Below, one piece after another: positions 1,173 through 35,738 of a stretch of 36,750 nucleotides of DNA. The position numbers and the translations under genes are program-made. Source of the stretch: a bacterium (GTDB lineage: Bacteria; Sysuimicrobiota; Sysuimicrobiia; Sysuimicrobiales; Humicultoraceae); NCBI GenBank assembly GCA_041497675.1, contig JBGQGY010000022.1, forward strand, positions 1 to 36,750. Reading direction: 5' to 3'. Every line of letters begins with the position of its first letter. Position 1 is the first letter of the stretch. The notes under the pieces are model-generated. The model had not been told where the DNA came from and made no database searches. It saw only the letters and a program-made list of their open reading frames with translations.

Positions 1173-1174
1173 CG

Positions 1175-2014
1175 TTATCTCCGTTGCGACAATCGCGGGT
1201 CCAGCGCGTCGCGCAACCAATCGCCGACCAGGTTGATCCCAATCACCAGCACCATCAGCGCCAGACCCGGCGTGATCGACGGCCACCAGGCCCCGCTGAA
1301 CAGATACTTGTAGCCACCGTCGATCAGCAGTCCTAGCGACGGCGTGGTGAGCGGCATCCCCAACCCCAAGAACGAGAGCGTGGCCTCGGCGACGATCACC
1401 CGCGGCAGGGCGACCGACATCAAGACGATCACCGGGGTCAGCACGTTGGGGAGGATGTGGCGGGCCATGATCCGGCGGTCGACCGCCCCGAGAGCGCGCG
1501 CCGCTTCGACGAACTCCTTTTCGCGGATCGCCAGCGTGCTGCCGCGCGCGGTGCGGGCGAATTCCGCCCAGCCAATCACGCCGATCACCACGATGAGTTT
1601 GTACAAGCCCCGACCCCAGATCGCTGCGGCGGCGAGCGCGACGAGAAGAAACGGGAGAGAGAGCTGCATGTCCGCCGCGCGCATCAGCGCCGAGTCGACG
1701 CGGCCCCGGTAGAAGCCGGCCACGATGCCGGCGCCGACGCCGATGATGACAGAGATGATGAGCGACAGCACGCCGAAGATGATCGAGATTCGCAGCCCGT
1801 AGAGGATGTTGCTGAACAGGTCGCGGCCGACGGCGTCCGTGCCCAGATGGTACGGACCGGCGAGCCACGTCGGCGCCATCAGCCGCCGGCTGAGGTCCTG
1901 CGCCTGCGGGTCCCAGGGTGCGATCCACGGCGCGAACAGGGCCATCGCGGCCAGCGCGAGCAGCAGCACGGCGCCGGCGCTGGCCGTCGGGCTCGCGCGA
2001 AGACTCCGCGCCAC
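1175..2014 (-). CDS. Peptide/nickel ABC transporter permease (DppC/OppC-like)
   Basis: LGTDAVGRDLFS, EAA loop (FVEAARALGA...RHILPN), EATLSFLGLG, C-terminal GDWLRDALDP; multiple TM helices. Confidence 0.95.
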   Translation of the reverse strand: MARSLRASPTASAGAVLLLALAAMALFAPWIAPWDPQAQDLSRRLMAPTWLAGPYHLGTDAVGRDLFSNILYGLRISIIFGVLSLIISVIIGVGAGIVAGFYRGRVDSALMRAADMQLSLPFLLVALAAAAIWGRGLYKLIVVIGVIGWAEFARTARGSTLAIREKEFVEAARALGAVDRRIMARHILPNVLTPVIVLMSVALPRVIVAEATLSFLGLGMPLTTPSLGLLIDGGYKYLFSGAWWPSITPGLALMVLVIGINLVGDWLRDALDPRLSQRR

Positions 2015-2019
2015 GTCGT

Positions 2020-2937
2020 CTACTCGTACCGGATGCGGGGATCGATCAGCGCGTAGAGCACGTCGACCGTCAGGTTGATGACGACGAAGAGCGCGGCGGT
2101 GACGATCGCATACGCGACCACGATCGGATAATCCAACCGCTCAATCGAGATCAGCAGCAACCGTCCCATCCCCGGCCACGCAAAGATCTTCTCGGTCACG
2201 ACGGCGAAGGCGATCAACCCTCCCATTTGGATCCCCGCGATGGTCGTGAACGGGATCAACGTGTTCTTCAACGCGTGGCGGTAAATGATCACACGCTCGT
2301 ACAACCCTTTCGCGCGCGCCGTACGGATGAAGTCCTGGCTCAGCACGTCCAACATGCCGGCCCGGATGAGCCGGACGAACAGGGCGAGGCGGTAGAAGGC
2401 CAGCGTCGCCACGGGGAGCACAAGATGCTGCCACCCGCCGCGCCCCGACGACGGCAACAGGTGCAGCGTCACCACGAACAGCGCGATCAGCACGATGCCG
2501 ATCCAAAACGTTGGCGCGGAGATACCCACCAAAGAGCCAAGGAGAACGCCGCGGTCGTACCACGAGTTGGGCCGCGCGGCCGCCAGCACCCCAAGCGGGA
2601 TCGCGATTGCGGTGGAGATCAGCATCGTCCAGATGACGAGTTCGAGCGACGCGGGCAGCCGCTCCAGTACCAGCCGGATCGCCGGCTCATGAAAATAGAA
2701 CGACGTGCCGAGGTCGCCGCGTATCGCGCCGCGGAGAAACTTGACGTATTGGACGTACCAGGGCTGGTTCAACCCCAGCCGTTCGCGCATGGCCTCGACC
2801 TGATCGATGCCGGCCGCGGGCGGCAGCAATAGCTCGATCGGGTCGCCGGTGAAGACCAAGAGCATGAAGATGACCATCGAGATGACCAGGAAGACCCCGA
2901 TCATCTGCACGAGCCGGCTAACGAGAAAACGCGTCAT
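2020..2937 (-). CDS. Peptide/nickel ABC transporter permease (DppB/OppB-like)
   Basis: GDP...LGLNQP..VQY, GDLGTS, DFIRTARAKGL, HALKN, TEKIFAWPGMG, DPRIR. Confidence 0.95.
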   Translation of the reverse strand: MTRFLVSRLVQMIGVFLVISMVIFMLLVFTGDPIELLLPPAAGIDQVEAMRERLGLNQPWYVQYVKFLRGAIRGDLGTSFYFHEPAIRLVLERLPASLELVIWTMLISTAIAIPLGVLAAARPNSWYDRGVLLGSLVGISAPTFWIGIVLIALFVVTLHLLPSSGRGGWQHLVLPVATLAFYRLALFVRLIRAGMLDVLSQDFIRTARAKGLYERVIIYRHALKNTLIPFTTIAGIQMGGLIAFAVVTEKIFAWPGMGRLLLISIERLDYPIVVAYAIVTAALFVVINLTVDVLYALIDPRIRYE

Positions 2938-2949
2938 GCGACGAAGAGA

Positions 2950-2974
2950 GGGGCGGGGGCTCGAAGACCGCCCC
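2950..2974 (-). other. GC-rich stem-loop between SBP and permease genes (possible mRNA-stabilising/attenuating hairpin)
   Basis: ggggcgg (2950-2956) pairs with ccgcccc (2968-2974), just downstream of the SBP stop; no U-tract. Confidence 0.4.
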
Positions 2975-2988
2975 CACCACCTGTGAGC

Positions 2989-4572
2989 CTATTTGAAGAC
3001 GATCTCCTGCGCGAGTATGTACTCGTCGACCCGCACCGGTATCGAGATGCCATCCTTGACCCCGCGGATCAACTCTTCGAAGTAGAGGGGGATCTTGCCG
3101 ACGTCCTGCCGCGTGAACTCTGCCGCCCTGGCAAAGGCCTCCATCCGCTTCTTCTCGTCCATCTCGGTGCGCATGACGTCAATGATCCTGTCCAGGTCGG
3201 GGTTGCAGTACCGGCCGTAGTTGGCTCGCCCGTAGCCCGTCTTTGGATCGACACAGCCCATGAGTGCGGCCCAGTTGGTGCTGGACACCAGCGTCAGCCA
3301 GCCGCTCATCTGCATCGACGTATCGAAGGCGCGCATCCTGGGGAAGTAGATCGCCCGCGGCAAAGCGTTCAACTGTACGGTGATACCGACCCGGCTCAGC
3401 ATACCGACCAGCGCCAGACCGACCTCGCGGTCGTTGACGTAGCGATCGGTGGTCACGTCGAGACGCACCGTGAACCCGTTCGGATACCCGGCCTCGGCCA
3501 GCAGGCGCTTCGCCCGCGACGGATCGTAGATAGGCCGGCGGACCCGCGGCGTGTAGCCGAGCATGAACGGCGGCAGGATTTGCTCGGCCGGCGACGCGGC
3601 GCCACCCATCACCTGCTCGACGATCTCCTTTGTGTTCAGGGCCGCATAAATGGCCTGCCGGACGCGCACGTCTTTGAAGGGATTGGGCTGGCCCGCGGCC
3701 ACGCCGGGGCTGGCCTGTGGATGGGCGCCGCCGCGATCGCGAAACGTGTCCATCGCCAAGAAGATCAGACGCGGGCCCTGTTTGCGCACCACCTTAAACC
3801 CTCTGGTCTTCGCGACGCGCGGGACATCGGGGATCGGCACGCTCTCGATGACGTCGGCTTCGCCGGCGAGCAACGCCGCGACGCGCGTCGCCCCCTCAGG
3901 GATCGGCCGGATCGTCACACGCGTGACCTGCGGTTTCGGTCCCCAATACTGCGGGTTCGCTTCAAGCACGATGCGCTCATCGCGGACCCACTCGACAAAT
4001 CGGTAGGGGCCGGTGCCGATCGGACGGCGGTTCAACCCTTCGTCACCCGCCTCGCGCGCATAGCGCGGCGAGAGCATCTGGATCGCGCCGATATTGGCGA
4101 CCAAGTCGGGTGAGGGCTCGGTCAGCGTGATGCGGAGCGTGAGGTCGTCGACGGCGCGGACGTCCTTGATGAGGCTCACGTACGCCTTTTGCAGCGACCG
4201 TTCGTGGTCGCGTGACCGCTCGATGCTGAACTTCGCGGCGGCTGCGTTGAAGGGGTCACCGTTGTGAAAACGCACGTTGGGACGCAGCTTGAATTCCCAG
4301 TTGAGAGTGTCGAGTGCGCGCCACGAGGTTGCCAACACGGGAACCAGCTTACCGTCCGCGTCATTGTCCACCATCGGCTCGAGCATGTGCCGCTGGACGC
4401 TGCCGGTGGTGCTGATCGCCGCGAGGATCGGATCCATCGTCTCCGCATCCCCCGTGATCGCGATGACGATGGGGCGGCCTTGAGCGAAGTTCTTGGGGGT
4501 CAGGCTGGCGGCCAACACCAGCGCGAGTCCGGCGATGAGCAGGGTCCGTGCCGTCCACGGCTTCATCTCCAT
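2989..4572 (-). CDS. ABC transporter substrate-binding protein, family 5 (DppA/OppA-like)
   Basis: N-terminal signal-like segment; PVLATSW, FKLRPNVRFHNG, PIGTGPYRF, NPFKDVRVRQA, LLAEAGYPNGF; SD gaggaggg just upstream. Confidence 0.95.
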   Translation of the reverse strand: MEMKPWTARTLLIAGLALVLAASLTPKNFAQGRPIVIAITGDAETMDPILAAISTTGSVQRHMLEPMVDNDADGKLVPVLATSWRALDTLNWEFKLRPNVRFHNGDPFNAAAAKFSIERSRDHERSLQKAYVSLIKDVRAVDDLTLRITLTEPSPDLVANIGAIQMLSPRYAREAGDEGLNRRPIGTGPYRFVEWVRDERIVLEANPQYWGPKPQVTRVTIRPIPEGATRVAALLAGEADVIESVPIPDVPRVAKTRGFKVVRKQGPRLIFLAMDTFRDRGGAHPQASPGVAAGQPNPFKDVRVRQAIYAALNTKEIVEQVMGGAASPAEQILPPFMLGYTPRVRRPIYDPSRAKRLLAEAGYPNGFTVRLDVTTDRYVNDREVGLALVGMLSRVGITVQLNALPRAIYFPRMRAFDTSMQMSGWLTLVSSTNWAALMGCVDPKTGYGRANYGRYCNPDLDRIIDVMRTEMDEKKRMEAFARAAEFTRQDVGKIPLYFEELIRGVKDGISIPVRVDEYILAQEIVFK

Positions 4573-4831: not shown

Positions 4832-4922
4832 GGAGAGGTGGCTGAGCTCGGTTTAAGGCGGCGGACTTGAAATCCGTTAGGGCCGCAAGCCCTCGTGGGT
4901 TCGAATCCCACCCTCTCCGCCA
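4832..4922 (+). tRNA. tRNA-Ser (anticodon TGA)
   Basis: Acceptor stem GGAGAGG/CCTCTCC, anticodon arm GCGGA-CT TGA AA-TCCGT, long variable arm AGGGC-CGCAA-GCCCT, T-arm GTGGG-TTCGAAT-CCCAC, discriminator G and encoded CCA. Confidence 0.96.
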
Positions 4923-24181: not shown

Positions 24182-24227
24182 GTAAGAGGAGCGGTGCTCT
24201 CGAGTCCGGTTGCCTTTGGAGGCAAGC

Positions 24228-25148
24228 GTGGCGGCCTACGTTGGTCGGCGCGTCCTGGCAAGCATTCCTGTCCTGCTGCTGGTCGTCACGGCGGTCTTCT
24301 TCGTGTTCCAGCTGATCCCGGGTGATCCCGCGCGCGCCTTCCTGGGGCCCGAAGCGACGCCCGACACCGTTGAGCAGGTCCGCCGCGACCTGGGGTTGGA
24401 CAAACCGGTGGTCGTGCAATACGTGACGTACCTGCGGCGGTTGCTCCAGGGGAACCTGGGGAAATCGATTTCCACGCGGCGCCCTGTGGCGGTGGAGCTG
24501 GGATCGCCGTTTCGCAACACCGTCAATCTCTCGCTGGCGAGCATCGTCCTGGCCACCGTGGCCGGTGTGCTGCTCGGGACGGTGGCCGCCGTGAATCAGG
24601 GCAAGACGTGGGATCACGTCGCGACGATTCTGGCGCTCCTAGGGATCTCGATCCCCGTGTTTTGGCTCGGTCTATTGATGATGTATTTCTTTAGCGTGAA
24701 CCTGCACATCCTGCCCAGCGCCGGCAACGATACCTGGCGGCACTATTTCATGCCGACCGTCGCCCTATCGGTGTTTTCGCTGGCATTTATCGCGCGGATG
24801 ACACGGTCGTCCCTGCTCGAAGTCATCCGACAAGATTACGTGCGCACGGCCCGCGCAAAGGGCGTGCCCGAATGGATGGTGGTGGGGTATCACGCGTTGC
24901 GCAACGCGCTGCTGCCCGTGGTCATCGTGGTCGGGCTGCGGTTCGGCTACATGTTGGGCGGCGCGGTCGTGACCGAGCAGGTCTTTGCGTGGCCCGGCTT
25001 GGGCCGGCTGCTGGTGCAGGCCGTGGGGCAGCGCGATATCCCGCTGATCCAGGGTATCTTGCTGCTCTTCGCGGCCGCGTTCGTGTTGGTCAATCTCGTG
25101 GTGGATCTCCTCTATGGCTTCCTCGACCCCCAGATCCGATACCGCTAG
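24228..25148 (+). CDS. Peptide/nickel ABC transporter permease (DppB/NikB-like)
   Basis: PGDPA, LGLDKP, GNLGKS, DYVRTARAKGV, HALRNA, TEQVFAWPGLG; SD ggagg before GTG 24228. Confidence 0.95.
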   Translation: MAAYVGRRVLASIPVLLLVVTAVFFVFQLIPGDPARAFLGPEATPDTVEQVRRDLGLDKPVVVQYVTYLRRLLQGNLGKSISTRRPVAVELGSPFRNTVNLSLASIVLATVAGVLLGTVAAVNQGKTWDHVATILALLGISIPVFWLGLLMMYFFSVNLHILPSAGNDTWRHYFMPTVALSVFSLAFIARMTRSSLLEVIRQDYVRTARAKGVPEWMVVGYHALRNALLPVVIVVGLRFGYMLGGAVVTEQVFAWPGLGRLLVQAVGQRDIPLIQGILLLFAAAFVLVNLVVDLLYGFLDPQIRYR

Positions 25149-25161
25149 CACGGCCGAGCGC

Positions 25162-26055
25162 GTGCCGGCAGCGCGCGTGGCGACCCCCAACGCGCTGCGC
25201 GTGTTCGTCCGCCTGCACCGGCTGGCCGCCATCGGCACCTTCCTGGTCCTGCTGTTCGTGTTCGCAGGCGTGTTCGCGCCCATGCTCGTCCCCTTCGACC
25301 CCGACCTGATCGACGTGCGCTCGACGTTGCAGCCGCCCAGCCACGCGCACCTGCTGGGCACGGACAACCAGGGCCGCGATCTGCTGAGCCGGATCATCTT
25401 CGGCGCGCGCATGTCGCTATTCATCTCGATGGCGTCGGTGGGCGCGGGGGCGGTCACCGGCGTGGCGCTGGGTACGCTTGCCGGATACTACCGCAGGCTC
25501 GACGGTCCGATCATGCGGCTGAACGAGGTGATGCTGGCGTTTCCGGGGATCGTCGTGGCGCTGACCGTAGTGTCGATCCTCGGCCGCGGTCTGGAGAACC
25601 TGATCGTGGCCATCGCGATCGTGCAGATCCCCCAGTACATCCGGCTGGCGCACGGGTTAACCCTATCGGTCAAGGATCGCGCGTATGTCGAAGCCGCCGT
25701 TGCTTCCGGCGCCACAGACGGCATCATCCTGCTGCGCCACATCATGCCGAACTCGCTCGCGCCGATCATCGTGCAGACCAGCCTCCTGGTCCCAGGAGCG
25801 ATCATGACGTCGGCCACCTTGAGCTTTCTCGGGCTGGGCGTGTCGCCCCCGACGGCCGAGTGGGGGGCGATGCTGCAGAACAGCCTGCAGTGGTCGCGTC
25901 TCGCCCCACACGTGATGGTCATCCCCGGGGTGGCGCTGATGCTCGTGGTGTTTGGGTTCAACGTGCTTGGCGATGGGCTGCGCGACGCGATGGACCCCCG
26001 CCTGCGGCGGATGAGCGGTGGGTCGCCCGGGTCGACCGCCGGCGCGGGAGGCTAA
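25162..26055 (+). CDS. Peptide/nickel ABC transporter permease (DppC-like)
   Basis: HLLGTDNQGRDLLSR, YVEAAVASGA...RHIMPN, LSFLGLG, EWG, GDGLRDAMDP; start uncertain (25114-25177). Confidence 0.92.
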   Translation: MPAARVATPNALRVFVRLHRLAAIGTFLVLLFVFAGVFAPMLVPFDPDLIDVRSTLQPPSHAHLLGTDNQGRDLLSRIIFGARMSLFISMASVGAGAVTGVALGTLAGYYRRLDGPIMRLNEVMLAFPGIVVALTVVSILGRGLENLIVAIAIVQIPQYIRLAHGLTLSVKDRAYVEAAVASGATDGIILLRHIMPNSLAPIIVQTSLLVPGAIMTSATLSFLGLGVSPPTAEWGAMLQNSLQWSRLAPHVMVIPGVALMLVVFGFNVLGDGLRDAMDPRLRRMSGGSPGSTAGAGG

Positions 26056-26062
26056 GAGCGAC

Positions 26063-27226
26063 ATGGCGCGCCAGACCGCTCGGCTGAGAGTGCCGTTCAA
26101 CGACGTGCGCGTCCAGAACCAGCGCCTCCGCGCGGAGATCAATGCCGCGATCCAGGCCGTCATTGATGACGGTCGATTCGAGTTGGGGCGCGAAGTCTAC
26201 GAGTTCGAGGCGGAGTTTGCCGCGTACTGCGGCGTCCGCCACGCCGTCAGCGTCCACTCGGGCACCGCGGCGCTCCACGTCGCCCTGCTGGCGATGGGCA
26301 TCGGCGCCGGCGATGAGGTGATCACGGTCGCCAACACCGATCCCTCGACGGTGGCCGCGATCCGCTTTACGGGCGCGCGGCCGGTGCTGGTGGATATCGA
26401 CGCGTCGAGTCTCAATATGGATCCGGAGGTGCTGGCCGCCGCGATCTCACCCCGCACGAAGGCGATCATGCCTGTGCACATGTACGGCCGGCCCTCGGAG
26501 ATGGCGCCGATCCTGCACGTCGCGCGGGATCATCGTCTGCTCGTGATCGAAGATGCGGCCCTGGCGACTGGGGCGACGTATCGGGGCGCCAAGACCGGCA
26601 CGCTCGGCGACGCCGCGGGTTTCAGCTTCGCGCCTGGGAAGGTTCTCGGGGCGTTTGGGTGGGGCGGGATGATCACGACCGGCGATCCTGAGATCGCCCG
26701 CCGAGCGCGGATGTTCCGCGCGTACGGTGAGGATCCTGACCAGTACCCGCCGCCGGCCGCCGGTTTTCGGTTTGCGGGGCTGCACCCCGAAGTGGTGGGC
26801 TGGAACGTGCGGATTGACACGATCCAGGCGGCCGTGCTGCTGGTGAAGCTACGCCACCTCGAGCCCTCGATCGAGGAGCGGCGCGCGATCGCCGAGCGCT
26901 ACCGGCGCGGCCTTGCCGGGTTGCCGGTCGTCGTACCCGATGACCCGCCGCACATGCGGTGCGTCTACCGCAATATCGTTGTCAGGGTTCAGTACCGCGA
27001 CGCAGTGCGTCGGGCGCTCTACGACGCGGGGATTCCCACAGGCACGCACTACATCCCACCGGTGCACCTGCAGCCGGCATATCACGACCTGGGGTATGCG
27101 ATGGGATCGCTTCCCGAGACTGAACGCGCAGCCGACGAACTGCTGACGCTGCCGATCTATCCGGGCATGCCCGACGGCGACGTCGATGTCGTTATTGGGG
27201 AGATTGCGCGCTTCGTGTCGCGGTGA
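26063..27226 (+). CDS. DegT/DnrJ/EryC1/StrS sugar aminotransferase (copy 1)
   Basis: SGTAALH, GDEVIT, IMPVHMYG, IEDAA, FSFAPGKVLG (PLP Lys), GWNVRIDTIQAA, HYIPPVHLQP, LTLPIYP. Confidence 0.9.
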   Translation: MARQTARLRVPFNDVRVQNQRLRAEINAAIQAVIDDGRFELGREVYEFEAEFAAYCGVRHAVSVHSGTAALHVALLAMGIGAGDEVITVANTDPSTVAAIRFTGARPVLVDIDASSLNMDPEVLAAAISPRTKAIMPVHMYGRPSEMAPILHVARDHRLLVIEDAALATGATYRGAKTGTLGDAAGFSFAPGKVLGAFGWGGMITTGDPEIARRARMFRAYGEDPDQYPPPAAGFRFAGLHPEVVGWNVRIDTIQAAVLLVKLRHLEPSIEERRAIAERYRRGLAGLPVVVPDDPPHMRCVYRNIVVRVQYRDAVRRALYDAGIPTGTHYIPPVHLQPAYHDLGYAMGSLPETERAADELLTLPIYPGMPDGDVDVVIGEIARFVSR

Positions 27227-27240
27227 CCGGTTGGCCGGTC
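27225..27240. terminator. Short inverted repeat spanning the gap between convergent DegT stops
   Basis: gaccgg-ttgg-ccggtc; 6-bp stem, no U-tract. Confidence 0.3.
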
Positions 27241-28394
27241 TACGCCGCCGTCTGCGCGACGGCTTCCAACACGGTCTCGGCAACCTCGTCAACATGCTCG
27301 GGGAGCAATCCCGCGTACATCGGCAGCGCGAGCAGCCGGTCGGCCGCGTGTTCGGCTACCGGACACGTCCCCGGTCCCAAGCCCAGGTGATGATAGACGG
27401 GCTGTAGATGCACCGGCGGGATGTACCGCAGCGCGGTGGCGATGCCCCGATCGGTCAGGACGCGCCGGACATGGTTGCGGCCGGGCACGAGCACCACGTA
27501 CTCGCGCCACGCGTGGGTGCACCCCGGTCTGACAACGGGCGCCCTGACCGGCGTGCCCTGAAAATGTCGCGCGTACCGCTCCGCCACCGCCTGCCGCTCC
27601 GCCTGCCACGCCGCGACTTGCGGCAGCTTGAGACGCACGATCGCGGCCTGCAAATCGCTCATGTACACGAAGTGGCCTTCCCGAAGGTTCTGCTGTCCCT
27701 GCTGGCGCAGCCGTTGTTCAGGCGGAGCCTCCGAGAGTTCGGGGTCCTGACCGACGCCGCGCAAGAGCAGCGCTTCACGCGCGACCACGGGGTCTCGTGT
27801 CACCAGCATGCCCCCGTCGCCGCCCCCGCCGATCACTTTGCCGATGCCGAAGCTGAAACACCCCACAGACCCGATCAGCCCGGTGTGCCGGCCGTTGTGC
27901 GTAGCGCCGAGCGAGAGGCAGGCATCCTCGATGACGGCCAACCTGTGACGTGCGGCGATGTCCATGATCGAGGTCATGTCTGCCGGGTGACCGTACATGT
28001 GAACGGGGAAGATCGCGCGGGTCCGTGGTGTCATGTGCTGTTCTAACAGGTTGGGGTCAAGGTTCATCGTGTCGGGTTCGATGTCGCACAGGACGAAGCG
28101 GGCGCCGGTCCGTGTGACCGACGCGGTCGTCATCAAATCCGAGTTGGGGACCGTGATGACCTCATCGCCGGGTCCGATGCCCAATGCCTTCAACGCGAGC
28201 AGCATCGCCGCCGTGCCCGACTGCACGGCGACCGCGTGACAGCCGCCGAGCATGTCGCTCACGTCCTGTTCCAACAGTGGGCTTTGGAACCGGCCCGGGG
28301 TCACCTGTCCAAGCAGGATCTCGCGCAGCGCGGCCTCGATCTGCGGGAAGAGGCGGCGGTTCTGGATGCTGTCGTCGGAGACCGGGATGCGCAC
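27240..28394 (-). CDS. DegT/DnrJ/EryC1/StrS sugar aminotransferase (copy 2, divergent)
   Basis: SGTAA, GDEVIT, FPVHMYG, IEDAC, FSFGIGKVIG, GDGG, YIPPVHLQP, LALPMY. Confidence 0.88.
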   Translation of the reverse strand: MRIPVSDDSIQNRRLFPQIEAALREILLGQVTPGRFQSPLLEQDVSDMLGGCHAVAVQSGTAAMLLALKALGIGPGDEVITVPNSDLMTTASVTRTGARFVLCDIEPDTMNLDPNLLEQHMTPRTRAIFPVHMYGHPADMTSIMDIAARHRLAVIEDACLSLGATHNGRHTGLIGSVGCFSFGIGKVIGGGGDGGMLVTRDPVVAREALLLRGVGQDPELSEAPPEQRLRQQGQQNLREGHFVYMSDLQAAIVRLKLPQVAAWQAERQAVAERYARHFQGTPVRAPVVRPGCTHAWREYVVLVPGRNHVRRVLTDRGIATALRYIPPVHLQPVYHHLGLGPGTCPVAEHAADRLLALPMYAGLLPEHVDEVAETVLEAVAQTAA

Positions 28395-28469: not shown

Positions 28470-30107
28470 CTAGCGCTTTTCCTTCCAGGCGTACTTGACC
28501 GGCCACATGTTGTACGCAGGGTCCAGATAGACGCCCTGGACGGAGTCTTTCATCGGTGCCTGCATCTGGATGTCGAAGAGCAAGATCCCCGGCGCGTCGC
28601 GGACAACCTGCTTGATGATTTGCGAGTAGTAGATCGAGTTGCGCCCGGACAGGTTACGGACGCGCAGCGAGTCCTCGATCAGGCGGTCCACCTGCGGGTT
28701 GGAGTAGTGCGAGTAGTTGAACCCGTTCGGCGGGAAGTCGACGCTGCGGTAGAAACCGAGCATGACATACTCGGCGTCGGCGGTAAACGTGTTGTTGCCC
28801 AGGTTGAGCATGTCATATTCGACGGCCACGCCGCCCGGCGCGTTCAGCCGGGCGAGCAGCGTCGCGCTGTCGGCCACGACGAGGTTGGCGTCGACGCCGA
28901 CGGCTCGCAGCATGCCCTGAACCAGTTCGGCGACCTCAAAGTCGCCGGGGGCGCCGCCTTTGCGCGTCACATAGGTGATCCGCAGCGGCTGGCCGTCGCG
29001 CTGGCGGATCCCACCCGCGCCCACGCGCCACCCGGCTTCTTCCAGCAGAGCCCGTGCCTTGTCCGGGTTGTACGGGTAGCCTTCCGTCGGCGTGAAGCCG
29101 GTCACCTGCGGGCCAAACAGCCACACCGTCGCCGTCTTCCCATTGCCCAACAGGACCGTGCGGATGATGCCCTCTTTGTCGACCGCGTAGTTGAGCGCCT
29201 GCCGGACGCGGACGTCGCTGACCAGGGGCCGGCGCGTGTTGATGTAGATGCAATACTGTCGCGAACCCACGCGTTCCAGCACCTTGAAGCCGGACCTCGT
29301 CTTGAACCGCTGGGCGTCGGGGAACGAAACCTCGCGGGCGATGTCGACGTCGCCCGCCTCCAGCATCGTGGCCCGCGTGTTGATGTCATCGGCCACGCGG
29401 TAGACGATCTCATCGAGGTATGGCAGCCCCTTCTGCCAGTAGTTGGGATTCCGCCGCAGCCGCAGTATTTGGTTCGGACGGAACTCCGCGACCGTGAAGG
29501 GGCCTGTCCCGGACGCCTGCAGCCGGATGCCGTCCTCGCCGACCTGTTGGACGAACCGGGGACTGTACATCGCGTTGTTCCCCATCGTCAGGATCGCATT
29601 CAGGTTGGGCGCCGTCCGGCTCAGGCTCACCCGGACCGTCAGATCGTCTACCACGTCGATAGATTTGAACGGCAGCAACCCGTACTGGATCTGCCGTCGG
29701 GAGATGCGGCGATCAAAGTTCCACTTCACGACCTCGGCGTTGAACGGCGAGCCGTCGTGGAACTTGATGTTGGGCTTGAGCTTCCAGGTGACGGTCAGGC
29801 CGTCGGACGAGACCTGCTCAGACTCCACCAGGAGCGGTTGGACCTTCCCGGTGCTGTCGCGCTCGAAGAGGCGTTCGTAAAAGTTGCCGATGGCCTCGAC
29901 GATCAGCGTTTGAGACACCGAGTTCGTGTCGAGATGGGGGAGGCCGGACGGGTACGACAGGGTCAGCGTCCCGCCGCGGATGGGCTCACGGGCCGGGGCC
30001 GGTGCGGCCGTTCCTGAGCCAAGGCCCACGAGCACAAGGATGCCGACGAGGCCGAGCGCCGCGAGAACACGCGAGACATGCAGACGTCCGTTCAACATAC
30101 GGGTCAC
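28470..30107 (-). CDS. ABC transporter substrate-binding protein, family 5
   Basis: Signal/anchor helix, RGGTL, WKLKPNIKFHDGSPFNAE, SGTGPF, LPYLDEI, DVRVRQALNYAVD, ARALLEEAGW, NYSHYSNP; SD aaggag. Confidence 0.95.
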   Translation of the reverse strand: MTRMLNGRLHVSRVLAALGLVGILVLVGLGSGTAAPAPAREPIRGGTLTLSYPSGLPHLDTNSVSQTLIVEAIGNFYERLFERDSTGKVQPLLVESEQVSSDGLTVTWKLKPNIKFHDGSPFNAEVVKWNFDRRISRRQIQYGLLPFKSIDVVDDLTVRVSLSRTAPNLNAILTMGNNAMYSPRFVQQVGEDGIRLQASGTGPFTVAEFRPNQILRLRRNPNYWQKGLPYLDEIVYRVADDINTRATMLEAGDVDIAREVSFPDAQRFKTRSGFKVLERVGSRQYCIYINTRRPLVSDVRVRQALNYAVDKEGIIRTVLLGNGKTATVWLFGPQVTGFTPTEGYPYNPDKARALLEEAGWRVGAGGIRQRDGQPLRITYVTRKGGAPGDFEVAELVQGMLRAVGVDANLVVADSATLLARLNAPGGVAVEYDMLNLGNNTFTADAEYVMLGFYRSVDFPPNGFNYSHYSNPQVDRLIEDSLRVRNLSGRNSIYYSQIIKQVVRDAPGILLFDIQMQAPMKDSVQGVYLDPAYNMWPVKYAWKEKR

Positions 30108-30139
30108 GCTCCTTTGGTGGTCAAAGTGCCTCTACGCTG

Positions 30140-31294
30140 TCAACTGCCGAGCTTCCTGTATGGTTTCCCCAACGGTGACAGCACGCGGCCGCCGTTGCGG
30201 GTGACATGGTAGTTGTCCGAGATCAAGAACGCGAGATCGCCCTTCAGCCACGTCGACGGATGGAAGGAGAGGACCATGTTCTCCTTCATCAGTTCGTCGG
30301 GTGGGGGCGGGGTGATGCCGTCGGCCTCGTCGGTGCCGATCGTATGACAGTTCGGTGTGTGATGGCCGATGACATCGTAGCCGGCGTCCATGAACACCTT
30401 ATCGGCGGTCTCGGCGATGAGGCCGTAGCGGTTCCCGGGTCTGGCGACGGCCGCGGCGGCTCGGACCGCCTGCCACGATGTCTCGAACCGCTTGGCCGCC
30501 GGATCGGGCAACGGGCCAAACGAGTACAGACAGGTGATCTCGTGCCAGTAACCCAGGGGGCCCGTGTAGACGAGTTCGAAGAGGATGACGTCGTCTCGCT
30601 TCAGCGGGCGATCCAACAGCGGGGGGATCGTGTAGGGGCGCTGGTCCAGCGAGTACTTCGATCGTCCCCAGAAGCATCCGCGTGCTTTTGCGTACCGCTC
30701 GGACTCCGCGGCGGCCTCCCACGCGGGCATCCCGGGTTTGGCGATCTCGCCGAACCGCTCGAGGGCGCCGGCGAGAATCGCCCCGGTCTCCTCCATGGCC
30801 TTGATCTCAAACGGCGACTTGATCTGGCGGACCGCGTTGACCTCGGCGTTGAGTTCTTGGAACGTGACACCGGGCAGGCCTTGCGAGAGCACGGCGTGCT
30901 CGCTCAGCGAGAGCACCGACAACATGTTCAAGGTGCCGATCTTCTGGCCCGGCTTGACCACCTTCTTGAGTTCATCGATCACCCGCGCTGTCGGCGGCTT
31001 ATTCTCGAGAATCGTGCTGACGACAGACGGCGTGGTCGCGATCTGCTTGGCCCACGCGGCGCCGTAGTTGGAGAACATGATGACCAAGGGATCGGGGTCC
31101 TGCAGCGTGACGATGAAGAACGCCCGCCCCGCCCACAGCTCGACGTTGGTGAAATAGCGGAGGAACCCGGTCTGCCCTGGCGCACCGCCCGCAATACCCA
31201 GTACCGCGGGCACGTTGTTGGCGGCCATGATCTTCTTGAGTTCGGCTATCCTGCGCTGCACATCGGCGCGGTGCTCGGGCGTTGGTGTCAGCAT
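30140..31294 (-). CDS. M24 (pita-bread fold) family hydrolase, Xaa-Pro peptidase/creatinase/ectoine hydrolase-like, atypical metal ligands
   Basis: Creatinase-N-like LRYFTN, RQIKSPFEI, RPLKRDD, GYWHEIT, HTIGTD, MKENMVLSFHP, ISDNYHVT..G...LS. Confidence 0.82.
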   Translation of the reverse strand: MLTPTPEHRADVQRRIAELKKIMAANNVPAVLGIAGGAPGQTGFLRYFTNVELWAGRAFFIVTLQDPDPLVIMFSNYGAAWAKQIATTPSVVSTILENKPPTARVIDELKKVVKPGQKIGTLNMLSVLSLSEHAVLSQGLPGVTFQELNAEVNAVRQIKSPFEIKAMEETGAILAGALERFGEIAKPGMPAWEAAAESERYAKARGCFWGRSKYSLDQRPYTIPPLLDRPLKRDDVILFELVYTGPLGYWHEITCLYSFGPLPDPAAKRFETSWQAVRAAAAVARPGNRYGLIAETADKVFMDAGYDVIGHHTPNCHTIGTDEADGITPPPPDELMKENMVLSFHPSTWLKGDLAFLISDNYHVTRNGGRVLSPLGKPYRKLGS

Positions 31295-31338
31295 CGGTGC
31301 GGCCCCCCTTTCGTGTCAACGTGCGGTCGTGCGCGCGG

Positions 31339-32415
31339 CTACAGCGGGAACGGTACGCTGAGATCCGCCGCGATCGGACGGAGTTTTTCGACGGTCTCGG
31401 CGTCGACGGGGATACCGTTCTTGAGCCGGTCCTGCATCCGGCGCTGCTCGGCTTCGCCGGGCAGCAGGATCTCTTCGCCGGGGGTAATCGGTGACGCCGA
31501 CTTCACCTCGCGGATGAGCTGTTCGAGGCGATCGAAGAACTGTTGTCTGGGCATGAACGCCTCGACATTCACGGCGGTCATCACGTGCGCCACGTCGAAG
31601 TGGCTGTCGTCTTGAAACACCGACATCCCGAACTGCGCGCCCATCATGACGCCGGTCATGACGTCGGTCATGAAGCTCAACCCGTATCCCTTCGCGCGGC
31701 CGATCGGGAGTTGCGTGCTGCCGTTGAGCAGCTCGGCGGGATTCGTCGTGCGGCGGCCGTCCGCGGTCAGCGCCAGGTCGTCGGGCACCGTGCGCCCCTC
31801 ACGATGCGCCCACGCAATCATGCCGATCCCCGACATCGTGAGCGCCATGTCCAGGATGATCGGGTACGCGTTTCGGCGTGGCACCGCCCAGCCCCAGGGG
31901 TTCGTGCCCAGCACCGCGTTCTTCGCTCCCCACGGCGCCATTTCCGCTTTCGCGTTGGTCATGGCCAGGCCGATGAAGCCGGATTCCGCGGCGGTCTTCG
32001 CGTGATAGCCGGCGATCCCAAAATGGTTGCTGTTGCGCACACCCACTATGCCGATCCCCGACTTACCCGCCAATTCGATCGCCTTGCGCATCGCGGTGTT
32101 GCCGGCATGATACCCGAAGGCCCTGTTGGCCTCGAGCAGCGCATACGCCGGGCCTTCCCTGACCCACGTGAGTTTCGCGCGCGGGACGTACCCGCCGTTC
32201 TTGACGCGCCGGTGGTAGCGAAAGAACTTCTCCAGACCTTGTCCCTGCCCGGGGTGCCACCAGAGGCTCGCCGTCGTGATGCCGTCGCTGACGACGTCGG
32301 CCTCTTCGGGGCTCCCGCCGAGGCCGAGGATGAGATCGCGCGCGAACGTCCGCACGACCGGCTCCGGGTACCGCTTGACCAGCGACTCTTTCAGTGGTAC
32401 GTGGATCTCTTTCAT
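31339..32415 (-). CDS. Ldh_2 family (malate/L-lactate/ureidoglycolate/DpkA-type) NAD(P)H oxidoreductase
   Basis: VRNSNHFGIAGY, MAPWGA, LGTNP, ILDMA, KGYGL, LLPGE; SD gaggagg. Confidence 0.9.
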   Translation of the reverse strand: MKEIHVPLKESLVKRYPEPVVRTFARDLILGLGGSPEEADVVSDGITTASLWWHPGQGQGLEKFFRYHRRVKNGGYVPRAKLTWVREGPAYALLEANRAFGYHAGNTAMRKAIELAGKSGIGIVGVRNSNHFGIAGYHAKTAAESGFIGLAMTNAKAEMAPWGAKNAVLGTNPWGWAVPRRNAYPIILDMALTMSGIGMIAWAHREGRTVPDDLALTADGRRTTNPAELLNGSTQLPIGRAKGYGLSFMTDVMTGVMMGAQFGMSVFQDDSHFDVAHVMTAVNVEAFMPRQQFFDRLEQLIREVKSASPITPGEEILLPGEAEQRRMQDRLKNGIPVDAETVEKLRPIAADLSVPFPL

Positions 32416-32425
32416 CGTGTCCTCC

Positions 32426-33610
32426 TCATGCCAGCCTGGGGATCGCGTCCGCGATCCGGCGTACGGCCTCGGCGATCAGGTGCTCGGGCTGCAGAAAGGT
32501 CATGCGGATGAAGCCGCCCCACGCCTCGCCGTACCCGACGCCGGGGAAGACGAGCACGTGGGTCTCTTCAAGGATGCGGCGCGCAAACTCGACAGACGAG
32601 AGACCCGTCGGCCGGATATCTACCAGGATGAACTGCCCGCCCTTTGGCGTGCCGTACGGCAGCCCGATGCGGTCAAGGCCCTCCATGATCAGGCGGCGTC
32701 GCCTGGCGTAGGCGGCGCGCATCTCGTGCAGCGGCTCCTGCGGGCCGGTCAGCGCCGCGATGCCCGCGCAGTGGCTGAGCACGGAGGTCCCACCGCTCAC
32801 CGCTTCTTTGATCCGCCGGACCTGCTGCATGATCTCCGCGGGTCCGGCCACCCAGCCGAGCCGCCAGCCGGTCATCGCGTACGACTTCGACAGCGCATTG
32901 AGCGTCAACGTGCGTGCCCCCATTCCCGGCAGCGAGGCGGGTGAGGTGTGCACGGCACCATCGTAGAGGAAACGGTCATAAATCTCGTCCGACAGGATGA
33001 TCAGGTCATGCTCCTCGGCAATGGCCGCCAGTTCTCGAACATCGCCGGGTGGCAGCACGGCCGCGGTCGGGTTGTTGGGTGAGACCAAGACGAGCGCGCG
33101 CGTCTTCGGCGTGATGGCGGCGCGCACGCGGTCGGGATCCAGGACGAAGTGGTCTTCCACCGACAGGTTCAGCGACACTTTGACCGCGCCGGCAAACGGG
33201 ATCGCGTCCCGATAACTGTTGTACGTCGGTTCGGGTAGGATAATCTCCTCACCCGGTCCGACGGCGGCCTGTACCATCACGAAGAGCGCCTCCTGGCCGC
33301 CCTGCGTGAGGACGATCTCCGTGCGCGGATCGACGTCGATGCCGTTGATGGTTTTCAGACGCGCCGCGATCGCCTCGTGGAGTTGCGCGCGGAGCACCTC
33401 GGGCGACGCGCGGTCGCGCTCGTCCGCTTCAAGCCACTGCTGCACCGCCCGGCGGATGTGTACCGGGGTGTCGAAGTCGGGGTCGCCTCGCCCAAGGGTG
33501 ATCGCATCGGGAAACTGTTTGGCCCGCGCGGTGAGCGAGTACAGAAGCGACGTCCCAGCGCCACCGGCCGAGGCGCCCGCAGAGGGCGCGTTGACGGCTC
33601 CACCGCTCAC
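32426..33610 (-). CDS. Class I/II PLP-dependent aminotransferase (catalytic Lys retained)
   Basis: LGRGDPDFDTP, GGQEAL, PTYNSY, SPNNPT, SDEIY, ALSKSYAMTGWRLG, FIRMTF; GTGA overlap with upstream gene. Confidence 0.92.
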   Translation of the reverse strand: MSGGAVNAPSAGASAGGAGTSLLYSLTARAKQFPDAITLGRGDPDFDTPVHIRRAVQQWLEADERDRASPEVLRAQLHEAIAARLKTINGIDVDPRTEIVLTQGGQEALFVMVQAAVGPGEEIILPEPTYNSYRDAIPFAGAVKVSLNLSVEDHFVLDPDRVRAAITPKTRALVLVSPNNPTAAVLPPGDVRELAAIAEEHDLIILSDEIYDRFLYDGAVHTSPASLPGMGARTLTLNALSKSYAMTGWRLGWVAGPAEIMQQVRRIKEAVSGGTSVLSHCAGIAALTGPQEPLHEMRAAYARRRRLIMEGLDRIGLPYGTPKGGQFILVDIRPTGLSSVEFARRILEETHVLVFPGVGYGEAWGGFIRMTFLQPEHLIAEAVRRIADAIPRLA

Positions 33611-34713
33611 GGTGAGTCACCGCGTCTGGTTTCGCTCGCCGCGAGCGCGCGCATGGCGCCGACGACCTCGCCGGTCGGCGTCACGGTGAAGCGCAGCACT
33701 CCCGGCGCACCGAACGCCTCACCCGGCATTGGTCGTGCCTGCAACTGCGAGAGATCGACGCCGGCGGCCGGCCGAACGGCCAGCACCGCCGCGGCTTCGC
33801 CGGGCAGAACGCGCGAAGGGAGGAGGCCGGCGGCCTCGGCCTTGATCTGCTGCAACAGCACACGCTGATGGTTCAACGCGGCAGGGCCGGCTTGCAGGAC
33901 GCCGAGCACGCCCCACTGCGCCGGCGTCGTCGTGCAGATCGCGATGATCTGTTTGAGGCTGAGGGCCCGTTGAAAGAGCGCCGGCGGGCCGGCGAGATAC
34001 GCGGCGAGCCAGCCTTCCACACCCGCACCCGACCACAGCGTCCCCAGCGTGATCGTGCGCTCAGCCATGCCCGGAAGCGCGCCGATCAGCTCATACGGCG
34101 TGCCGTCCCGCACCCAAGGCGCCAGCGTCGCATCCCAGACGACCACCGCATCGGTCTGGATGACGGCGTTGGCGATGGCCTCGACCTGCGGCCGGTCGAT
34201 GAGTTTGCCGGTGAGCCGGTTTGGCGATTCAAGGTACAGGGCCGTCTTGCCCGGCGCCACCGCGCGCGTGATGTCATCGATCACCGGCGTCATCGCGAGC
34301 GGATCGAGCGTGAGCCGATCCGCCATCATCTGACCCAACGACGCGGCCTTGCGCGCGCCCGGGTGCACGATGGACGGGAGGACGACCCGATAACCCGCGT
34401 GCGCGAGTGCGTGCATCGCCAGGAAGCGCGCCTCTTGCTCACCCGACGCAATGATCAGACCCGCTTCGGCGTCCACGGGCAGGCCCTGCAACGCGAGGAC
34501 GCCTGCGACCGCTTCAAGCAGCGGCGCGATGCCCGGCACGTCGGCATAGTGCGTCTCGCCGGCCTCAAGCGCGGCCGACGCGGCTTTGCGAGCGACGGGT
34601 GCGAGGTCGAAGACCGGGTGATCGCCCGAGAGGTCCTGGCCCGACGCCAGCGGCTCTGGCATCTCTAATTGCAGCGCCTGGTTCCGCTGCAGCCTGCCGA
34701 CCGCCTGCGACAT
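33607..34713 (-). CDS. Class I aminotransferase-fold protein lacking the PLP lysine (pseudo-enzyme subunit)
   Basis: GETHYADVPGIAPL, SGEQEARF, ESPNRLTG, WDATL, ERTITLGTLWSGAGVEGW (no K, no R), PGEAFGAPGVLRFT; intact ORF; start ATG 34713 or GTG 34731. Confidence 0.8.
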   Translation of the reverse strand: MSQAVGRLQRNQALQLEMPEPLASGQDLSGDHPVFDLAPVARKAASAALEAGETHYADVPGIAPLLEAVAGVLALQGLPVDAEAGLIIASGEQEARFLAMHALAHAGYRVVLPSIVHPGARKAASLGQMMADRLTLDPLAMTPVIDDITRAVAPGKTALYLESPNRLTGKLIDRPQVEAIANAVIQTDAVVVWDATLAPWVRDGTPYELIGALPGMAERTITLGTLWSGAGVEGWLAAYLAGPPALFQRALSLKQIIAICTTTPAQWGVLGVLQAGPAALNHQRVLLQQIKAEAAGLLPSRVLPGEAAAVLAVRPAAGVDLSQLQARPMPGEAFGAPGVLRFTVTPTGEVVGAMRALAASETRRGDSP

Positions 34714-34748
34714 CCGCGCTGATCCTGACACGGCGTGCGCTCGGGTTG

Positions 34749-35738
34749 CTAGCCCCCGATCTCCTCCTCGATCACGCCGTAGAAGATGCACCAGTCACCG
34801 AGCTGCACGCTCGGGTTCGTCCGCATCCCAAACGGGATGCCGTCGCACGGCGCGCGGACTTCCGCCGCGAGATCGCCGTCGAGGGTGTAGATACGGGCCA
34901 TGATCGTGCCCTCGCGGATGCGCTCGCGCAACACTTCGGGCACGGGCACCCAGAACCCCGACGTCGGCGCCAGCACCACCGTCTTCTGCTGGCCGACCAT
35001 CCATCGCCGAGCGTATTGCGGCGTGCCGTCCACCATCTTGTAGTGGCGCATGATGTTGAGCAGGGCGCGCGCCAGCGCGTTGCCATTGTCACGGAAGCGC
35101 GCGGGGAAGGTGTCGCACAGCCCGCCGAGCTCCACCGTGATCGCGGGTTTCCCCTTTTGCTTCATCGCCGCCATCGGGCTGCCGCGGTCGCTGAACGACT
35201 TGAGTAAGAGGTCCCACTCGGGCCCCATCGCCTTCGCCAGTTCGAGACCTTCGGGGGTGGGATTGTAGAATTGCGCGTAGGCGAGGTAGGAGTGCGCGCC
35301 ACCGGAATGGATCGAGACTTCCATGTCCGCGTGCTCGATCATCGTGACATGATGCGCGTGCGCGATCCGCTCGGTGAGGTGGCCGTCGGGGCGGCCGGGG
35401 TAGATGCGATTCAAGTCATACGTGAAGAGGTCGGTGGGATTCCCGCGTTGAGAGTGCTCGAACGCTCCCACGTTCACGACCGGAACGGCTACGAGGGCGC
35501 CGCGCATCGAGCGTGGGTCGAGTTGCGACAACAGGGTGAAGAGGGCCATCGGCCCTTCGGGTTCGTCGCCGTGGATCGCCCCGTTGACCCACAGCACCGG
35601 ACCATCGTCTGCGCCGTTGAGCACGATTAGGGGGATTTCGATCGGGCCGCCGCCGGTCCGCTGCCCCACGGGAATGACGCCCTTCGACTTGCCGGCGCGA
35701 GGTGCGCGCGCCGTTCCAACGGCAAGTTCCTTTTTCAA
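34749..35738 (-). CDS. M14 succinylglutamate desuccinylase/aspartoacylase family deacylase (DoeB-like fold)
   Basis: IHGDEPEG (HxxE), VPVVN, DLNRIYPGRPDG..TER, SIHSGG, ITVELGG, C-terminal APTSG...APCDG hybrid motif; TTG start. Confidence 0.9.
   Translation of the reverse strand: MKKELAVGTARAPRAGKSKGVIPVGQRTGGGPIEIPLIVLNGADDGPVLWVNGAIHGDEPEGPMALFTLLSQLDPRSMRGALVAVPVVNVGAFEHSQRGNPTDLFTYDLNRIYPGRPDGHLTERIAHAHHVTMIEHADMEVSIHSGGAHSYLAYAQFYNPTPEGLELAKAMGPEWDLLLKSFSDRGSPMAAMKQKGKPAITVELGGLCDTFPARFRDNGNALARALLNIMRHYKMVDGTPQYARRWMVGQQKTVVLAPTSGFWVPVPEVLRERIREGTIMARIYTLDGDLAAEVRAPCDGIPFGMRTNPSVQLGDWCIFYGVIEEEIGG

Follow-up and report, generated by a model that had tools for sequence, protein, structure and literature searches.

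Within a window of 36,750 nucleotides (the whole stretch of DNA analysed, positions 1 to 36,750 of contig JBGQGY010000022.1, assembly GCA_041497675.1, from a Sysuimicrobiota bacterium of the Humicultoraceae), two adjacent genes, here called A and B, probably encode the two chains of one aminotransferase, a pseudo-homodimer with a single pyridoxal 5'-phosphate (PLP) site that would lie in B and be completed by A. Independent lines of sequence comparison lend this heterodimer reading good support. We infer that A and B bind each other physically, that the complex holds one active site and that its activity depends on A, and also that the pairing may be "obligate" and that A may shape the substrate specificity, as a preliminary description of this DNA had proposed.

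Sequence and fold of the two chains

A and B lie head to tail on the minus strand, with A upstream of B, and are paralogous class I aminotransferases by alignment (BLASTP, 28% identity over 290 residues, E 2e-23), the best Pfam family of both being PF00155. The match of B (214.7 bits, cut-off 19.7) spans profile positions 2-361 of 361 and places it within the class I/II aminotransferases, and its best solved relatives are the Pyrococcus horikoshii aromatic aminotransferase 1DJU (4.8e-82) and the Thermus thermophilus aspartate aminotransferase (AspAT) 1BKG (3.7e-73). The residues that a chain supplies to its own site are found in the motifs SPNNPT, SDEIY, LSKSY, GWRLG and FIRMTF (respectively Asn, Asp/Tyr, Lys, phosphate-binding Arg and carboxylate-binding Arg), and Lys242, Asn180, Asp208, Tyr211, Arg250 and Arg369 align with own-chain PLP and substrate residues of the solved enzymes (Asn194, Asp222, Tyr225, Arg266 and Arg386 equivalents). 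At the Tyr70-type motif of the class I family, B reads ADERDRASPEVL in place of G-x-T-x-Y...G, and in alignments to 1BKG and other solved enzymes no Tyr stands opposite the Tyr of T-x-Y. The preliminary description had B keeping every same-subunit PLP residue while lacking this motif, and all of the motifs that it quoted are indeed present. No NCBIfam family among the 25 shown for each protein reached its own cut-off; the top match of both, the PLP-dependent cyclodehydratase GntC (NF041364), was rejected at 300.2 bits for B and 88 for A against a cut-off of 415.

The second chain, A, matches PF00155 with 59.8 bits and contains the motifs GETHYADVPGIAPL, SPNRLT, WDATL and TLWSGAGVEGWL. Aligned with B, it has Ser for the Schiff-base Lys, Leu for the phosphate Arg, Leu for the Tyr of DxxY and Arg for the second Asn of NNPT, and its cofactor cup is made up of Trp227, Ser228 and Leu236 at the Ser255, Lys and Arg266 equivalents. 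Translation and BLASTP alignment hence bear out the claim that A has lost the Lys, the phosphate Arg, the DxxY Tyr and the NP motif yet keeps G-x-T-x-Y. The same alignment adds two points absent from that account, i.e., that the Asp (of WD) and the C-terminal Arg are retained. Because it is without both the Schiff-base Lys and the phosphate cup, we file A as a pseudoenzyme of the family and not as an aminotransferase; databases name A-family proteins generically (e.g., "aminotransferase class I/II-fold PLP-dependent enzyme").

A nevertheless preserves the aminotransferase fold well and over its full length, though with no cofactor site. Its AlphaFold2 (AF2) model has a mean pLDDT of 89 and a pTM of 0.89, Foldseek aligns this model with class I aminotransferases at a template-modelling (TM) score of 0.81-0.84 with both domains of the fold present, the A-family profile aligns at full length with T. 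thermophilus AspAT 1BJW (residues 27-377, 5e-35), and an alignment of 35 A sequences has 37 invariant columns. A role as a MocR/GabR-type regulator was discarded, A having only aminotransferase-fold Pfam matches, no DNA-binding domain among them, and a start ~35 residues before the fold. A relocated catalytic Lys (K254 or K122) is unlikely, since B and other aminotransferases conserve K254 just as well and A no longer has a phosphate cup. Its nearest homologues have 374 residues and begin six residues earlier than the 368-residue ATG form, and an in-frame GTG is available at 34731, downstream of the TAG stop of the preceding gene; A may therefore span 33607-34731 (374 aa), with the true start at this GTG in place of the ATG at 34713.

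Conservation, linkage and fusion of A and B

A word-based search with A recovered 45 protein clusters at 37-93% identity, beyond which the score falls from 197 to 104 bits at ordinary aminotransferases. Scanning one genome per GTDB species gave 71 loci, 70 of them with an A-type gene (L069 holds an ordinary aminotransferase), and the 70 A-bearing genomes include 62 from Chloroflexota and four from Armatimonadota. Immediately downstream of A and in the same orientation, 68 of the 70 have a B-type gene; the contigs of the remaining two (L012 and L054) stop at A or shortly past it. Measured from longest open reading frame (ORF) starts, the 68 A-B junctions comprise nine 4-base overlaps, 13 other apparent overlaps (probably over-long ORF starts), 39 gaps of 0-30 nt and seven of 31-269 nt, i.e., B starts before or at most 30 nt past the A stop in 61 loci and at most 269 nt past it in all 68. 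The GTGA overlap from which coupling had been argued is thus real in the window, but short gaps are the rule in related loci, and we consider that A and B are probably co-transcribed and, in this genome, translationally coupled. At two loci (L015, 9129-10296, and L055, 2291-3437) the B gene is split into two overlapping ORFs, through either a frame break or an assembly error.

Evolutionarily, pairwise distances of A and B across the 68 loci are strongly correlated (r = 0.92), which indicates that the two genes are inherited together, with a median distance of 0.50 for A vs. 0.31 for B. The ratio of non-synonymous to synonymous changes (dN/dS, Nei-Gojobori) was estimated for those 42 pairs of loci in which the dS of A and that of B both lie between 0.05 and 0.8. 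Its median is 0.239 for A (0.109-0.444) and 0.083 for B (0.013-0.143), and A has the higher value in every pair (0.222 vs. 0.087 between the window and L002). A is under purifying selection. Rarity, decay or lack of linkage of the Lys-less gene had been named beforehand as grounds against pairing, and none of them was found: its homologues are frequent (45 close clusters, genomes of 70 GTDB species), they combine a median dN/dS of 0.24 with a confidently predicted full-length fold, and B adjoins A wherever the contig continues.

The conservation of active-site residues is divided between the two genes in a joint alignment of 71 A sequences and 70 B rows. At the Lys position, A sequences have Pro (52), Ser (10), His (5), Ala (2), Thr (1) or a gap (1), and never Lys; the Asn194 position is Arg in 70 of 71, the Tyr225 position is replaced in all 70 rows that have a residue there (Leu in 66), the phosphate Ser position is Trp, Phe or Tyr in 63, and the phosphate Arg position is a hydrophobic or other residue throughout. 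Tyr56 of the T-H-Y motif is Tyr in all 71. For B, the Lys is present in 68 of 70 rows, the exceptions being a 114-residue fragment (L031) and the broken gene of L055, and the Asn, Asp, Tyr and phosphate Arg are each present in 69. The Tyr70 position of B is far less constant, with Tyr in 40 of 68 sequences and 13 other states, and its Tyr/non-Tyr state changes at least 12 times on a FastTree phylogeny built from 63 B orthologues of full length, without L069 and six rows that were partial or split. In a control set of 71 ordinary class I aminotransferases (distant matches, median pairwise identity 34%), Tyr is found in 70, and Lys and the closing Gly in all 71. The complementary motif loss described beforehand is therefore complete in the clade of the window (window, L001-L005 and L007), where the whole Tyr70 motif has gone from B, but does not extend to the 40 orthologues that still have Tyr.

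A second segment behaves in the same way. Within K254-Q266 of A (KQIIAICTTTPAQ), the residues K254-Q255...I259-C260-T261 are invariant in A; in B the I259 position has become Gly and the Q255 and C260 positions vary. More broadly, every Lys-less group keeps T-H-Y, Q255, I259 and C260, and every Lys-bearing group without the Tyr has them relaxed. By a rough count from the Lys position, this segment corresponds to AspAT residues 284-296, a region from which Arg292* and Ser296* presumably reach into the partner's site. As for Tyr70, it contacts the PLP phosphate from the adjacent subunit (PMC6715241). Since Tyr70 acts in trans, in an A:B dimer the Tyr of A would be essential to the site of B, and the Tyr of B, facing a dead pocket, would be free to drift. 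The observed split is what is expected of a single-site heterodimer.

We thus propose that A and B would be two halves of one enzyme, assembled as in an ordinary class I homodimer but as A:B. B would act as the catalytic subunit, with Lys242, the Asn, Asp and Tyr around the PLP ring, Arg250 for the phosphate and Arg369 for the carboxylate all coming from its own chain. A, with its own cofactor site destroyed (Lys to Ser/Pro, Asn to Arg, Tyr to Leu, phosphate Ser to Trp/Phe/Tyr, phosphate Arg to hydrophobic), would lend across the interface both the K254-Q266 segment and the T-H-Y motif, whose Tyr56 would form a hydrogen bond with the PLP phosphate of the partner. The one PLP site would be in B, and the second pocket, in A, would be empty and lie opposite the degenerate Tyr70 loop of B.

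Natural fusions provide a further line of evidence. A profile search with the A alignment against 1.84 billion representative proteins returned 194 proteins at E <= 1e-30, two of them long (P0303, 653 aa, and P0308, 630 aa), and a follow-up search added six (P0390-P0395, 577-641 aa), or eight protein clusters of 577-653 aa in all. Identity to P0303 is 47-51% across no less than 95% of that protein, and a 1.4-Mb contig carries one of the fusions. All eight have the same build, i.e., a reduced A-like module at the N-terminus, a low-complexity linker and a complete B-like enzyme at the C-terminus. The N-module (~170-260 residues) has GATHYT.RAG, a G-x-x-E-x-L-F helix, a Lys-less GDF...GL.GW strand and ELKQGLNICT, with a variable or deleted middle and no small domain. 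The C-module has the Lys, Asn, Asp, Tyr and both Arg, and in none of the eight a Tyr at the Tyr70 position. By their sequences, then, the N-modules look like a natural minimisation of the pseudo-subunit, indicating which of its parts matter, and the fusions read as Rosetta-stone evidence that both kinds of chain work as one unit. An AF2 model of P0308 from an eight-row alignment (mean pLDDT 74.6, pTM 0.82, disordered linker at 213-250) would fit a fixed packing of the two modules, given such a pTM despite the disordered linker. Foldseek against the PDB matched only the C-terminal module of the fusion model (TMq 0.51-0.55) and so says nothing on the pseudo-dimer arrangement. In P0392 and P0393 the pseudo-module has lost most of the central sheet as well, and the THY, Lys-less strand and KQ..ICT elements stay.

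Lys-less chains extend beyond the A family. Among the best 150 of the 194 profile matches, 116 representatives have at least 320 residues and divide into 71 without Lys, 43 with Lys and Tyr, and two fusions. Tyr is kept in 70 of these 71 Lys-less representatives, ~44 of which show Arg at the Asn194 position, the signature of A; a further 26, in other groups, carry G[EA]THYT.RPG and LKQA.SIC..SQ.AALA. Conversely, Tyr at the Tyr70 position is absent from all 41 Lys-bearing proteins nearest the fusion C-module (P0396-P0436) and present in 31 of the next 59. These other Lys-less families and the Tyr-less clade P0396-P0436 may, from their residue patterns, be further two-gene heteromeric aminotransferases. 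The Lys-less set outside the A family, in which at least those 26 fall, consists of P0301, P0305, P0306, P0316-P0320, P0327-P0334, P0340-P0346, P0361, P0363 and P0369-P0380. A tblastn search of plasmids with one Lys-less protein (P0328) gave only matches below 37% identity, among them two adjacent "aminotransferase" features on the Haloprofundus halobius plasmid NZ_CP083667.1 (L072, 2860-3980) that proved to be one split gene and not a tandem pair, and an ESM Atlas search gave generic aminotransferase clusters only.

An IQ-TREE phylogeny (quick search, LG+C20) of 108 rows unites all 36 rows that have Lys and a relaxed Tyr position (B, fusion C-modules and others) in one clade (SH-aLRT 99), which lies within the standard enzymes, and a single branch (98) parts all 45 Lys-less from all 63 Lys-bearing rows. 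Fusion N-modules cluster with unfused Lys-less proteins (98), and fusion C-modules with unfused Tyr-less enzymes. Since several of the Lys-less rows sit on long branches, their grouping may be inflated. It is tempting to speculate, from residue patterns and this quick tree, that heteromeric class I amino-acid aminotransferases make up a large superfamily that has hitherto gone unrecognised, a proposal that we regard as evenly poised. An old duplication would have given an own-site lineage (Lys-bearing, Tyr70-relaxed) and a partner-facing lineage (Lys-less, with THY and KQ..IC conserved), which would have co-diversified as pairs of genes in several lineages and fused at least once, the pseudo-subunit being indispensable and helping to set specificity.

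Alternative roles for A

Several observations weigh against the heterodimer reading. As 40 of 68 B orthologues retain the Tyr at the Tyr70 position, a B homodimer might be competent there, and Tyr loss in the clade of the window could be a late consequence of dependence and not its cause. A Tyr70->Phe mutant of AspAT keeps a sizeable fraction of activity, so that loss of the Tyr alone would not inactivate B. On the side of A, the Asp222 and Arg386 equivalents are each kept in 70 of 71 sequences, and His117, Arg166, Arg96 and an HPGARK motif are invariant and specific to A; a pure Tyr-donor role leaves these conserved residues unexplained, which could be there to occupy the vacant pocket or to hold a ligand. 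Finally, the 4-base overlap is limited to nine of 68 loci and seven have gaps of 31-269 nt, and the 108-row tree comes from a quick method with long branches among the Lys-less rows.

Two alternatives keep B active by itself. In one, A binds B as a modulator and not as a required half, B2 being the basic enzyme and A:B altering its specificity, stability or activity, possibly lowering it. This would fit linkage, selection and fusions as well as the required heterodimer does, and would also fit Tyr retention in many B orthologues and the residual activity of the AspAT mutant. We still think it unlikely, as the fusions tie each catalytic module 1:1 to a pseudo-module and leave no room for B2, B is never without an adjoining A in the 68 testable genomes (68/68), and two relaxed partner-facing segments in B predict a defective B2. 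In the other, B is a self-sufficient homodimer and A a separate, non-catalytic protein of the operon, e.g., a ligand-binding or regulatory A2 with a remodelled pocket (His117, Arg166, Asp194 and Arg341), which the invariant Tyr56 could itself serve; the retained Asp222 and Arg386 equivalents, the A-specific invariant residues and the Tyr of the 40 B orthologues all speak for this. A separate A would, however, leave unexplained why B has relaxed its Tyr70 and I259/C260 positions, which ordinary aminotransferases keep, and why the A-like module of the fusions lost the small domain and much of the core and kept exactly THY and KQ..IC, and the phosphate-binding residues of A are gone; we consider this quite improbable. 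A might also be a duplicate on its way to becoming a pseudogene, placed by chance upstream of its active paralogue, and its evolution at about three times the rate of B by median dN/dS, with larger distances, speaks for this. That explanation is hardly credible with an intact ORF in 70 genomes of two phyla, dN/dS of at most 0.44 in all 42 pairs, 37 invariant columns and a confidently predicted fold.

Related systems and gene neighbourhood

In reviews, fold-type I aminotransferases figure as homodimers or homotetramers, and one from 2022 notes how little is known of heteromultimers made of monomers of different aminotransferases (PMC9309667). In the open-access literature searched, no class I amino-acid aminotransferase with a Lys-less partner was found. 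The nearest counterpart is SerTA (Ser4/Ser5) of Serratia sp. ATCC 39006, presented by its authors as the first heterooligomeric aminotransferase studied (FEBS Lett 2024, PMC11726168). As in A/B, tandem genes encode fold-type I paralogues, one complete and one without the catalytic Lys. In SerTA the Lys-less chain supplies residues needed for activity and the heterodimer unit has one active site (PMC11726168), as we propose for A and B. SerTA differs in belonging to the DegT/DnrJ/EryC1 sugar-aminotransferase family, to which A and B, with PF00155 as their best Pfam family, do not belong. Further differences are that Ser4 is truncated at both ends, whereas A is full length and only its fused relatives are truncated, that SerTA, a heterotetramer, has a substrate bound to a carrier protein and belongs to a secondary-metabolite cluster, whereas A/B lies in a probably catabolic operon, and that the supplied residues are those of helix alpha-8* in SerTA and would be those of the Tyr70 motif in A.

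Two other fold-type I systems are comparable. In eukaryotic serine palmitoyltransferase (LCB1/LCB2), two homologous subunits have the PLP Lys in only one of them, and a single site per heterodimer serves as the working hypothesis (PMC3794620). Unlike A/B, LCB1/LCB2 is a membrane-bound, eukaryotic member of the alpha-oxoamine synthase family that catalyses a Claisen-type condensation rather than transamination. The alpha/beta-type P-protein of glycine decarboxylase (e.g., in T. thermophilus) is likewise a pseudo-dimer of fold type I, with PLP bound by only one of its two homologous chains. It also exists in single-chain fused forms, a parallel to the split and fused forms seen here, in another family and reaction (the glycine cleavage system). 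By sequence and fold, the solved structures nearest to A and B are T. thermophilus AspAT (1BJW/1BKG) and P. horikoshii 1DJU, of which B has all the own-site residues. Those enzymes are homodimers with two equivalent sites and both Lys and Tyr70 motif in each chain, unlike A/B, where these features are divided between two genes.

If the heterodimer is real, the principle of a Lys-less partner would extend to classical AspAT-like amino-acid aminotransferases, and it would be widespread (70 species genomes and many further Lys-less families), with single-chain versions already in nature. Pipelines annotate both genes as "aminotransferase", so that metabolic reconstructions would count a non-enzyme; B expressed alone may fail; and the conservation split would be a natural map of cis- and trans-acting residues in a class I subunit.

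The genes around A and B (Table 1) point to a catabolic role. In the conserved cluster (window 28470-35738, minus strand; L017, 7285-17060; L013, 6502-17072), one to three AstE/DoeB-like deacylases occur per cluster. The Chloroflexota clusters have the order GntR/FCD regulator, A, B, SDR (short-chain dehydrogenase/reductase), Ldh_2, AstE-like, peptidase S9, two more AstE-like genes and M24. An Ldh_2 homologue lies downstream of B in ~40 of the 71 loci (37 besides L017); in L013 a D-2-hydroxyacid dehydrogenase follows B, and no Ldh_2 homologue was found at that locus. An amidohydrolase gene is divergent from the same-strand run 28470-35738. Amino-acid-freeing hydrolases combined with a transaminase and a 2-oxo/imino-acid reductase suggest catabolism of peptides or N-acyl amino acids, and the A/B enzyme most likely transaminates an amino acid released from these, a substrate that we infer from the neighbouring genes. 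A class I aminotransferase beside Ldh_2 also recalls the D-lysine aminotransferase/piperideine-2-carboxylate reductase pair of Pseudomonas putida, which we take as a lead only.

Table 1. Coordinates of A, B, their diagnostic segments and the genes next to them in the window.
Feature	Position	Strand	Basis and remarks
Gene A, Lys-less full-length aminotransferase-fold pseudo-subunit (putative)	33607..34713	-	ATG start, 368 aa
A G52-G61 (GETHYADVPG), retained Tyr70-type motif, Tyr56 at 34546-34548	34531..34560	-	translation; T54, H55, Y56 and G61 invariant or nearly so
A Ser228, at the Schiff-base Lys position	34030..34032	-	alignment of A with B
A K254-Q266, second segment kept in A and other Lys-less relatives, relaxed in B-type enzymes	33916..33954	-	K254, Q255, C260 and Q266 invariant
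GTGA overlap of the A stop (TGA) and the B start (GTG)	33607..33610	-	four shared bases
Gene B, catalytic class I (subgroup Ib-like) aminotransferase subunit (putative)	32426..33610	-	GTG start, 394 aa; closest database proteins likewise 394 aa
B residues 62-73, degenerate Tyr70 region without Tyr and closing Gly	33392..33427	-	translation and alignments
B Lys242, Schiff-base lysine (LSKSY)	32885..32887	-	alignment to A and solved enzymes
AstE/AspA-family deacylase, DoeB-like, upstream of A	34749..35738	-	PF24827, 95.7 bits; best match DoeB (TIGR02994), 114.6 bits, below its cut-off of 402.7; homologues in related loci
Ldh_2-family 2-oxo/imino-acid dehydrogenase, downstream of B	31339..32415	-	PF02615, 335 bits
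M24-family hydrolase (creatinase/prolidase/ectoine-hydrolase fold)	30140..31294	-	PF00557, 68.9 bits; weak DoeA match, 27.5 bits
ATP-binding cassette (ABC) transporter solute-binding protein, family 5 (peptide/opine type), last in the same-strand run	28470..30107	-	PF00496, 298 bits

The window is rich in genes for peptide uptake and hydrolysis. More parts of peptide-type ABC transporters lie at 81-4572 and 24210-26055, with two permease pairs and an M20 peptidase, which brings the family-5 binding proteins to two in all. Adjoining the operon are two convergent DegT/DnrJ/EryC1-family aminotransferase paralogues, 44% identical, at 26018-27226 (plus strand) and 27240-28394 (minus strand). Both carry Lys in the aligned GK(V) motif, which we take to be the PLP site of that family, and they are therefore not a pair of pseudo and active chains. 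The sole RNA gene found in the window is a tRNA-Ser (anticodon TGA) at 4832-4922 on the plus strand.

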